Source of the DNA: Escherichia coli
GTDB lineage: Bacteria > Pseudomonadota > Gammaproteobacteria > Enterobacterales > Enterobacteriaceae
Assembly: GCF_001677475.2 (NCBI RefSeq)
Contig: NZ_CP015229.1
DNA length: 64,000 bases
Direction: 5' to 3' (one strand)
A model generated the notes under the pieces. That model ran no database searches. It saw only the letters and a list, made by a program, of their open reading frames with translations, and was not told the origin of the DNA. Shown one piece after another: positions 56,302 through 57,614 of the stretch. Position numbers and translations under genes: made by a program. How positions within the stretch are numbered: position 1 is the first letter of the stretch; the number at the start of each line of letters is the position of its first letter.

Positions 56302-56429
56302 GGATATTTATCAGGATTTATCGGTTCCGAATCCCTGGATATGTTAATTCTTCAGCCCGCCAGTGGTGGGCACTGGTGTTTTACCTGATGGCTGAAATAT
56401 ATCTGACAATTCCCGTCGAGGATTTAGCA

Positions 56430-56744
56430 ATGTATAACGATGAACATAAATATACCGCCTGCATGCAGGCCATGAATGAACAATTTAAATCAGCATTCCT
56501 TAAACTCATTCAGCAAAACCACGAAGCAGTAAAATCCATTCAGGCTGAACCGTATGGACACCTCACACCACCAACTCTCGACATTATGTCCAGAATATTA
56601 ACACCAGCCATGCTTCTACGTCTGAAAGACAATATAAATGACTGGTTAAACGAAGAATTAAACTACCTTGAATGTGAGTGGGATCATCATTACGCCAAAT
56701 CACAAAAAGAACGCATCTTCCGTCGATTATCCGGCAACAGATAA
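56430..56744 (+). CDS. hypothetical protein, convergent with the 213-aa lysis-cassette insert gene
   Basis: ORF 56376-56744; start placed at MYNDEHKYT after GAGGA RBS; protein-like composition; no recognised domain. Confidence 0.45.
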   Translation: MYNDEHKYTACMQAMNEQFKSAFLKLIQQNHEAVKSIQAEPYGHLTPPTLDIMSRILTPAMLLRLKDNINDWLNEELNYLECEWDHHYAKSQKERIFRRLSGNR

Positions 56745-56753
56745 CGAGCCAGC

Positions 56754-57395
56754 TTATATACGTCCTTTAAGATAAGTCAGTCCTGGATGAAACCAGTAAG
56801 CCGGCACTTTTTTAAAGGGTGAATTATCAAAATCACGAAGAAGAGCCTCCCGCACAACTGCATCCTTGTCCGCACCACTGGCCAGCGCTTCAATCTCAGC
56901 AGCTACCTGCAGATATCCCATGCAACGACCAACGCGCTTCATTAGTCCCTGCTTTTTATTGTTCTTCAGGTAATCAATGGCAAATTCAATGAGCGCCTCA
57001 CTGTGCTGGTGCGATGCTGGTGTTACTTTTCCATCTTCACGGATCGTGATATTCCAGTCATCGCTTGTCACAATAAAAGATGGCCGATTATCCCCCCATT
57101 CCTGGTCTTTATCCGGTGCAGACGCAATAAAATAACGTTTATTGCCTTCCTCTCCGGCACTTTTAACTGTAATGGAGTACTTTTCTGACAATGCGGTCGG
57201 TAAAAACTTTTCCTGCAAAATCTTCGCAAAGGTCCTGCGAGCAATTTTGATGCAATCATCGTAAAACGCTGCTTCCTGCTCATCGCGGCGTTTTTTTTCA
57301 TCTTCAGAAACCATCAGCACCGACAGTTTTTTATTCAGTTCAGTGATTTCATTTTCCAGGCAACTTATGCGCTGATTCATTTCTTCATGGTTCAT
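56754..57395 (-). CDS. hypothetical protein with N-terminal coiled coil, inserted between holin and endolysin
   Basis: 213-aa ORF; ATG 3 nt after holin stop with GGGGAGAG RBS inside holin 3' end. Confidence 0.6.
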   Translation of the reverse strand: MNHEEMNQRISCLENEITELNKKLSVLMVSEDEKKRRDEQEAAFYDDCIKIARRTFAKILQEKFLPTALSEKYSITVKSAGEEGNKRYFIASAPDKDQEWGDNRPSFIVTSDDWNITIREDGKVTPASHQHSEALIEFAIDYLKNNKKQGLMKRVGRCMGYLQVAAEIEALASGADKDAVVREALLRDFDNSPFKKVPAYWFHPGLTYLKGRI

Positions 57396-57398
57396 CGT

Positions 57399-57614
57399 CT
57401 ACTCTCCCCGCGCCGCCTTACGCCGGTCTTCTTTAATTTTGAAATACAGGTTCGTCAGGTACGTCAGCAGACCAAACAGCAGACTCCCCAGCACGCCTAT
57501 TGCCACCCACTGGGACGGAGAGACTTTGTCCAGCAGCTGCAGTAACCAGTATCCCGTCCCCACCGCTGACGTGGTGTATGACACACCTGTTGTGATTTTT
57601 TCCATCTGGTACAT
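57399..57614 (-). CDS. class II holin (phage 21 S-like pinholin) with dual start MYQM
   Basis: ORF 57399-57695; 71-aa product strongly resembles phage 21 S21 including ...[21 protein letters not shown]. Confidence 0.8.

Follow-up and report, generated by a model that had tools for sequence, protein, structure and literature searches.

Background

In bacteriophage 21 the pinholin gene is followed directly by that of a signal-arrest-release (SAR) endolysin. Phage P1 encodes a soluble antiholin, LydB, just after its holin. In phage lambda, bor is a small gene adjacent to the lysis genes, on the strand opposite to that of the late operon, and its presence varies among related phages; its product is a lipoprotein, and the gene is located after Rz and has its own defined promoter. 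In the Qin prophage of Escherichia coli K-12, the slot after the class II holin and before the lysozyme is occupied by ydfR (DUF1327/PF07041). Here we analyse a locus of a 64,000-nucleotide stretch of E. coli DNA (contig NZ_CP015229.1, assembly GCF_001677475.2; hereafter the window), where two genes separate the pinholin from the SAR endolysin of a lambdoid prophage that is not of the Shiga toxin (Stx) type. The first gene, X, encodes a soluble protein on the late strand, directly after the holin, and the second, S, encodes a small soluble protein on the opposite strand and is convergent to X.

X shares its slot with YdfR, and resembles LydB in being a soluble protein encoded directly downstream of the holin. 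Unlike LydB, to which it has no sequence similarity, it contains a C-terminal domain (X-C) that accompanies three holin families. K-12 YdfR lacks the X-C domain, X lacks DUF1327, and K-12 has no convergent partner gene; in the long proteins of the YdfR family (268-333 aa) the coiled coil and C-domain of X are fused to DUF1327. Like bor, S is an antisense accessory gene near the lysis genes and is variably present. Unlike Bor, the S protein is soluble and helical, its gene is located inside the cassette and always tail-to-tail with one gene family, and neither a promoter nor a terminator of S was demonstrated by consensus scans.

The pair itself had already been annotated, contrary to the original prediction, in Stx2-converting phage 86 (gp05/gp06, NC_008464), in two Stx2a phages and in the stx-less prophage of the O104:H4 strain 2011C-3493. 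In phage 86, in phage Stx2_12E129 and in the O104:H4 prophage the orthologous genes have the same place, the same orientation and the same 9-nt gap, and phage 86 and the window are 68% identical in S and 82% identical in X-C. Unlike X, gp05 (268 aa) has a DUF1327 N-terminal domain and no coiled-coil module. The annotations of gp05 and gp06 are just 'YdfR family protein' and 'hypothetical protein'.

A second convergent arrangement, here called type B, is present in phage PhiR12_1 and in a Qin-like prophage of O68:H12, with the same slot, layout, leader and stem-loop as S. Its late-strand gene (169 aa) ends after the coiled coil, without X-C, and its small protein is unrelated to S. Since type B is present in the O68:H12 prophage, the lone ydfR of K-12 is probably its deletion derivative; essQ-ydfR-rrrQ of K-12 Qin appears to stand in such a relation to that prophage (L033 1801-2560; L004 5055-5366). 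The single K-12 gene cited as a parallel in the original prediction thus looks like what is left of a different convergent pair.

The small convergent gene S

The locus belongs to a lambdoid lysis cassette on the minus strand (54.9-57.7 kb of the window). At the junction between holin and X, the sequence ...GGGGAGAG is followed by TAG, ACG and ATG, leaving a 3-nt spacer, and the Shine-Dalgarno sequence of X (GGAG) sits within the last codons of the holin. The stop codons of S (TAA, 56742-56744) and X (56754-56756) are separated by 9 nt, and S and the endolysin are divergent, with their starts 128 nt apart. The positions of the 213-aa and 104-aa open reading frames (ORFs), the spacer, the ribosome-binding site inside the holin, the convergence and the gap are all as originally predicted.

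In seven out of seven loci compared (77-95% mutual DNA identity; 78-86% to the window) S was open at exactly 104 codons. The ratio of nonsynonymous to synonymous substitution rates (dN/dS) was 0.24-0.56, third codon positions were favoured by substitutions, and all other frames had 2-12 stops each. That S is always open despite up to 23% DNA difference, with the other frames stop-ridden, is more than chance would give. By these comparisons S is a real protein-coding gene under purifying selection, and the conservation of the plus-strand ORF, on which the original prediction had made itself depend, is confirmed.

The start of S was assigned to the ATG at 56430, which is conserved and has GAGGA (56418-56422) ahead of it. 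Two longer starts were rejected, namely the GTG at 56376 (longest ORF) and the ATG at 56388 used by the Prokaryotic Genome Annotation Pipeline (PGAP): neither is conserved, and variants with CTG plus a 1-nt frame shift were found. The interval 56430-56744 given for S in the original prediction therefore stands, and the boundary at 56376, which is the GTG of the longest ORF, does not.

The AlphaFold2 (AF2) model of S is a confident five-helix bundle, with a predicted local distance difference test score (pLDDT) of 84.5 and a predicted template modelling score (pTM) of 0.78. S matches phrog_1853, a family of unknown function (E 1.5e-45), and has a Salmonella orthologue with 47% identity (E 6e-36). 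The family is tiny: among 1.84 billion cluster representatives, searched exhaustively with a profile, there were just 18 such proteins, several of them truncated. Neither S nor X had a significant match in Pfam, NCBIfam, PADLOC or PDB, in line with the absence of any recognised motif noted originally, and PDB sequence and profile searches gave coiled-coil noise only. The Salmonella and metagenome relatives of X and S match the same PHROG families as the window proteins, and these are families of unknown function. No defence model was found in PADLOC-DB 2.0 for X, S or the Salmonella and metagenome relatives; the sole PADLOC match (E 0.003, to PDC-S11) was obtained for the PhiR12_1 protein with DUF1327 and coiled coil, and not for X or S.

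The number of S copies, in different prophages, reaches four in some strains. IS1 interrupts the copy of strain GB089 (NZ_CP013663.1) that best matches the window.

Conservation of the X/S pair

Fifteen S loci were read closely. In 14 of them (the window, L001, L009-L013, L017, L019, L023-L025, L027 and L030) an X-C ORF or its remnant is convergent to S, with the stops -33 to +19 nt apart, and in L035, a further E. coli S lineage, S and X overlap by 21 nt. S and its X-C partners were convergent in all the loci tabulated. The partner proteins range from 129 to 330 aa according to their N-terminal architecture, and X-C alone is constant.

The neighbours of the pair change from lineage to lineage. 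E. coli has the arrangement holin(2_1) - X - S - lysozyme. The Salmonella loci L017 and L030 have Q - HicAB - X - S - holin(2_1) - lysozyme, and Salmonella Dublin (L019) has ParE/HTH - DUF4406 - X - S - holin(2_3). Metagenome contigs L024 and L025 show X - S - HNH - holin(3_1). Across genera S and X-C diverge in step (r = 0.91), both being at ~35-50% identity. Among 5426 complete E. coli genomes, S DNA was detected in 94 and the S/X junction in 97, which means that S is essentially never away from X-C in complete E. coli genomes. No intact S without an adjacent X-C or X-C remnant was seen among the loci examined.

By these alignments X and S are conserved as a unit across E. coli, Salmonella and metagenomic phages, and across positions. 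The neighbourhood of lambdoid prophages thus bears out the pair, and neither gene is a one-off insert; X-C alone is carried by 786 of the 5426 genomes and is also found in Salmonella.

In the Salmonella loci L017 (~5130-5170), L019 and L030 a GC-rich hairpin, GGTCGCCATGTGCGGCC, is flanked by T-runs on both strands. It lies between the S leader and the holin, has the appearance of a bidirectional terminator and sets the X/S unit off from the holin.

Domain organisation of X

X matches phrog_1085, a family of unknown function, with E 1.8e-100, at profile positions 117-296 only. A Pfam scan detected no DUF1327 in X, and in the alignment X begins where DUF1327 and the linker have ended; its identity to PF07041-containing proteins of 268-333 aa is 60-87% across coiled coil and C-domain. 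On this evidence X is a mosaic member of the YdfR family without DUF1327. Its database homologues form 151 clusters, mostly named E. coli, and the profile search with the C-domain brings in further Shigella and Salmonella proteins. The family is modular: DUF1327 (YdfR), linker, coiled coil, beta-rich middle and highly conserved helical C-terminus occur in many combinations, in proteins of 103 to 333 aa. The form without DUF1327 is common, and some 213-aa clusters have hundreds of member sequences.

The N-terminal module of X is common to the C-terminal part of proteins with DUF1327 and coiled coil, such as the 169-aa protein of PhiR12_1. The AF2 model places N-terminal helices, at low confidence, at residues 3-26 and 31-64. 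X-C is characterised by the motifs H-x-H-S-E, GRCMGYLQVAAEIE, DFxxPPFK and W..PG..YLKGRI. It matches phrog_26186 and the C-terminal part of phrog_1085, its Salmonella homologues are 38-48% identical, and it is the sole part present in all partners of S. X is hydrophilic (pI 6.2) and has no transmembrane (TM) segment; the maximum 19-residue Kyte-Doolittle value is <1 for both X and S.

Residues 1-72 of K-12 YdfR (DUF1327) bind RNase E's catalytic domain (the N-terminal domain, NTD) and co-purify with RNA (PMC13232886). Since this lead concerns a domain that is absent from X, X is without the published RNase E-binding part.

The leader of S

The leader of S is 94% conserved among E. coli variants, above the S coding region. 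It contains a stem-loop with the consensus CGCCAGTG-loop-CACTGGYG, which is kept in the E. coli, Salmonella and metagenome lineages with a loop of 5-9 nt. Twelve nucleotides upstream of the stem, a TAnnnT hexamer (TATGTT, TATGGT or TACGGT) is present in all the lineages with this leader that were compared. Over nine sequences 97% of the stem cells are paired, and every one-sided change in the stem gives a G.U pair on the S (plus) strand and would give C.A on the late strand. Compensatory double changes were absent from the nine sequences, so covariation statistics have no power here. An Rfam scan of 54.5-59.5 kb detected no family in the leader. The same leader and stem-loop precede the unrelated 86-aa gene of type B. 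The leader of L035, which represents the third E. coli S lineage, is of another kind and carries two TATAAT hexamers.

Other interpretations of this region were considered and discarded. An intrinsic terminator was rejected, there being no U-tract in the Salmonella or type B leader; a protein operator is unlikely with a loop that varies from 5 to 9 nt; and the alternative hairpin of the minimum-free-energy fold, GCCCGCC/GGTGGGC, is not conserved in Salmonella. The pattern of conservation and of G.U pairs points to a 5' leader on the S strand that probably opens with a stabilising hairpin.

Between the stem-loop and the start of S there is a conserved motif, ATGGCTGA (56387-56394), which may be an upstream ORF or an RNA motif. 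It also occurs in the leaders of L017, L019 and L024, and in the form ATGGCTGT in L030. In L019 and L024 a very short upstream ORF starts with this motif, which is in frame in the window and out of frame in L017.

No terminator was found between the 3' ends of S and X. The transcripts of the two genes must therefore overlap.

Loss of S, decay of X and other genes in the slot

In most X-bearing E. coli loci the X stop is just 42 bp from the lysozyme start. A segment of 410 bp, comprising the leader and S except for its last 11 nt, is missing from most E. coli X-C loci, and the difference is clean in the alignment with the S-less loci L005 and L006. The S-less loci retain the final 11 nt of S (GCAACAGATAA, encoding …NR*), in agreement with the conserved C-terminus of Salmonella S (…GR*). 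Because this leftover 3' end matches the conserved C-terminus, the S-less form is most simply a deletion derivative. Judged from this distribution S is dispensable, and is required neither by X nor by the lysis cassette.

Decay was also found on the other side. In the P0180 lineage X is lost altogether and the C-terminus of S is replaced. Variants P0183, P0184 and P0190 of S are truncated or frameshifted, the last being by sequence in the lineage with an X remnant. Frameshifts or a replaced C-terminus are frequent in S copies that have lost their partner or have just a remnant of it beside them (P0180, P0190). In one prophage with X deleted and the C-terminus of S replaced (L037/L038), an ORF for an Enterotoxin_a/Scabin-like ADP-ribosyltransferase (3413-4204, minus strand) is located just upstream of the holin.

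The direct succession of holin and SAR endolysin, assumed as the norm in the original prediction, applies to phage 21 and not to E. coli prophages generally, where a YdfR-family gene fills the slot between holin and lysozyme in at least ~1100 of the 5426 genomes. The two type B genes overlap by 53 nt. Homology between S and the 86-aa protein of type B was rejected (hhalign probability 0.3%).

The lysis cassette and its neighbourhood

The coordinates of the features are collected in Table 1. The cassette is of the phage 21 type: its holin is class II, its lysozyme bears a SAR segment at the N-terminus, and Rz1 is embedded in Rz. The annotation of the near-identical locus L002 gives the holin as 'class II holin family protein', and the equivalents of Rz/Rz1 in L001 and L002 are annotated as 'lysis protein' and rz/rz1. 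The N-terminus of the endolysin has a SAR-like hydrophobic stretch; SAR function and a pinholin mechanism would be expected from family membership.

Table 1. Positions in the window of the genes, domains and leader elements of the X/S locus
Feature	Position	Strand	Description
Class II (S21-type) pinholin	57399-57614	-	71 aa, starts MYQM; PHROG holin families phrog_9876 and phrog_20; L002 annotation
X	56754-57395	-	213-aa ORF; soluble late-strand protein, directly after the holin
X N-terminal helical/coiled-coil module	57204-57395	-	~aa 1-64; from alignment and low-confidence AF2 helices
X-C	56757-57086	-	Conserved ~110-aa C-terminal core; invariant alignment columns
S	56430-56744	+	104-aa ORF; soluble, helical, convergent to X
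S leader (divergent intergenic region with endolysin)	56302-56429	+	128 bp; holds GAGGA ribosome-binding site, 56418-56422
Leader stem-loop	56358-56378	+	CGCCAGTG-GTGGG-CACTGGTG; single copy in the window, 0.03 expected
Presence/absence segment	56324-56733		410 bp; leader and S without the final 11 nt; borders GATTTATCGG and GATTATCCGG
SAR endolysin (R21-type lysozyme)	55768-56301	-	177 aa; phrog_7 endolysin; L002 annotation 'lysozyme'
Rz-type spanin	54967-55434	-	155 aa from MNRV on; equivalents annotated in L001 and L002
Rz1 lipoprotein ORF embedded in Rz	55008-55214	-	Lipobox at Rz1 start

The Q antiterminator is encoded ~5 kb upstream of the lysis cassette on the same strand, and is followed by accessory genes and two tRNAs. 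These are tRNA-Gly(tcc) (60068-60142, minus) and tRNA-Thr(tgt) (60146-60221, minus), located downstream of Q in the late region, at the place of the tRNAs and stx of Stx phages. The stretch from Q to the holin is crowded with accessory genes, among them an IraM-like anti-adapter ORF (57787-58122, plus) opposite to the late operon and a TerB-family ORF (58545-58970, minus) on the late strand, both named from the L002 annotation. Upstream of the holin, in the interval from the IraM-like ORF to the DUF3927/TerB genes, there is a full-length Rfam match to the small RNA STnc100 (RF02076; 58167-58342, minus; 93.7 bits vs a gathering score of 47). A strong terminator-like hairpin (55647-55675, minus), with a 12-bp stem followed by a T-rich tail, is located between the endolysin and Rz, among small unannotated ORFs (55436-55667).

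Discussion

Four things are directly observed: how the locus is built, that S is coding, that the pair is conserved and that S is dispensable. The best explanation is that X and S form an accessory module of two genes, dispensable and located in the late regions of lambdoid prophages, outside the lysis machinery proper. X would be a soluble cytoplasmic protein translated, together with the pinholin, from the Q-dependent late transcript. Its working part would be the ~110-aa C-domain, the N-terminal modules (DUF1327, linker and coiled coil) being interchangeable. S would be a small five-helix cytoplasmic protein, transcribed from its own stem-loop leader against late transcription. We propose that S is produced during the silence of the late operon (in lysogeny or early infection), that it is switched off by head-on Q-antiterminated late transcription and by antisense pairing, and that it acts on the C-domain of X as a partner, most likely as an antagonist or guard. 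To this proposal, of expression during late-operon silence, shut-off by late transcription and action on X-C, we assign a probability of about 0.4. It is favoured by the translational coupling of X to the holin, by an S that is intact, selected and confidently folded, by the retention of the pair as the position of the holin and the neighbours change, and by stem substitutions that are tolerated only on the S strand.

Several results weigh against this proposal. About 88% of the X-bearing E. coli genomes are without S (~690 genomes with X alone), which indicates that X does not need S. Within E. coli the alleles of S and X-C reassort freely (r = 0.24). An intact S (P0178, 16 contigs) is located beside an X remnant of 65 aa. 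Other genes can take the place of S: a DUF1883 gene occupies its convergent position beside a divergent X-C in S. diarizonae (L021), and in the type B cassette, present in 313 E. coli genomes, an 86-aa phrog_2572 gene is convergent to a DUF1327 plus coiled-coil gene in the same slot. Scans of the region upstream of S in the window, L030 and L035 detected no consensus sigma-70 promoter. The AF2 model of X is poor overall (pLDDT 56.6). Finally, close physical adjacency alone could account for the linkage between S and X.

Much of this evidence is what would be seen if S were an independent, bor-like antisense moron in a reusable leader slot, its link with X-C being historical and X an unrelated late accessory protein. 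This is the main rival to our proposal and only slightly less probable. The linkage would then follow from the abutting 3' ends, which recombination cannot separate. The 410-bp indel gives S the presence/absence polymorphism among syntenic phages that characterises a moron, clean at its borders and with the segment missing from most X loci. The sharing of leader and hairpin with the phrog_2572 gene, the DUF1883 gene of L021, the intact S beside a degraded X and the reassortment of alleles all point the same way, and other antisense morons, such as the IraM-like ORF, are found nearby. Against an independent S, the pair has stayed together at 35-50% protein identity despite the changed holin position and neighbours, an intact S is never seen without X-C or its remnant, no terminator delimits S as in a classic cassette and no clear promoter was found.

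A role at the RNA level is unlikely. Here the S transcript, with its 5' stem-loop, would pair across the 3' end of X and, with a 450-nt untranslated spacer antisense to S, would tune the expression of the endolysin (of the holin in Salmonella) or the decay of the late mRNA, the S protein being secondary. A leader that is better conserved than the coding region, a stem-loop kept across genera and ahead of two different cargo genes, and transcripts that must overlap would fit such a role, as would the fusion of X-C, in many relatives, to DUF1327, the domain that binds RNase E and is co-purified with RNA (PMC13232886). The X of the window has no DUF1327, however, and S clearly encodes a protein, which is under purifying selection and has a confidently predicted fold. 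In addition, the downstream gene on the late strand varies by lineage (lysozyme, holin or HNH), and there is neither an Rfam match nor compensatory covariation.

The chances are equally slim for X as a soluble lysis-timing regulator of the pinholin or the SAR endolysin, by analogy with LydB, with S modulating X; lysis timing had also been raised in the original prediction. The coupling of X to the holin suggests it, and X-C genes adjoin a holin in every context seen, with three holin families. But X-C is conserved beside holins of changing family (Phage_holin_2_1, 2_3 and 3_1), which speaks against a holin-specific contact. Accessory genes generally gather at the start of the late operon, phage 21 lyses without an X-like gene, and X and S show no sequence or fold similarity to known lysis regulators (P1 LydB, T4 RI/RIII or Mu releasin) in the PHROG 'lysis' families, Pfam or PDB.

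Least probable of all is a moron of the late operon with a role in defence (a toxin-antitoxin pair, an abortive-infection system or similar), of the kind raised in the original prediction: the pair is a two-gene unit with presence/absence polymorphism in prophages and is adjoined in Salmonella by bona fide toxin-antitoxin pairs (HicAB, ParE), so the region does collect such cargo, yet the genes are convergent and form no operon, their co-occurrence is not obligate and no toxin or antitoxin domain was found (as a type II system would have), there is no hydrophobic membrane toxin, no TM segment in either protein and no Rfam antisense RNA family (which excludes a hok/sok-like type I system), no PADLOC, Pfam or NCBIfam profile matches even the Salmonella and metagenome relatives, and, with X alone in hundreds of genomes and an intact S beside a dead X, neither gene behaves like a toxin that needs the other.

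An extension of the proposed antagonism between S and X may be put forward, which we regard as doubtful. X-C would be a late cytoplasmic effector checked by a small helical antagonist made from a hairpin-protected antisense transcript, with head-on transcription enforcing their reciprocity, and the two would constitute a new prophage switch. Such an effector, often fused to the RNase E-binding DUF1327, might act on RNA decay or on lysis timing, and the shared leader with its swappable genes would be a general 'antisense guard' platform.

The sequences themselves are not new, X and S being already in databases as hypothetical proteins and in PHROGs. Literature searches (ydfR with holin, accessions, locus tags and Stx2 phage 86) returned nothing on the X/S pair, and only the YdfR-RNase E lead. 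In the literature searchable, the conservation of the convergent pair across genera and positions, the place of X as a DUF1327-less mosaic member of the YdfR family, and the leader and stem-loop shared with alternative small genes against the late operon all appear to be undescribed.

The pinholin/SAR-endolysin pair is a textbook lysis system, and yet about one in seven E. coli genomes (786/5426) has an uncharacterised X-C gene coupled to the pinholin. In a subset of these a conserved antisense partner is also present, with examples in Stx2-converting phages and in the O104:H4 outbreak strain (in a prophage). Should both genes prove to be without a phenotype, the locus would simply be another hypothetical accessory pair. 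If X or S does alter lysis timing, late-mRNA stability or prophage fitness, this would bear on the release of phage and of Shiga toxin. The shared leader and stem-loop offer a testable example of how prophage cargo may be expressed from inside a silent late operon.

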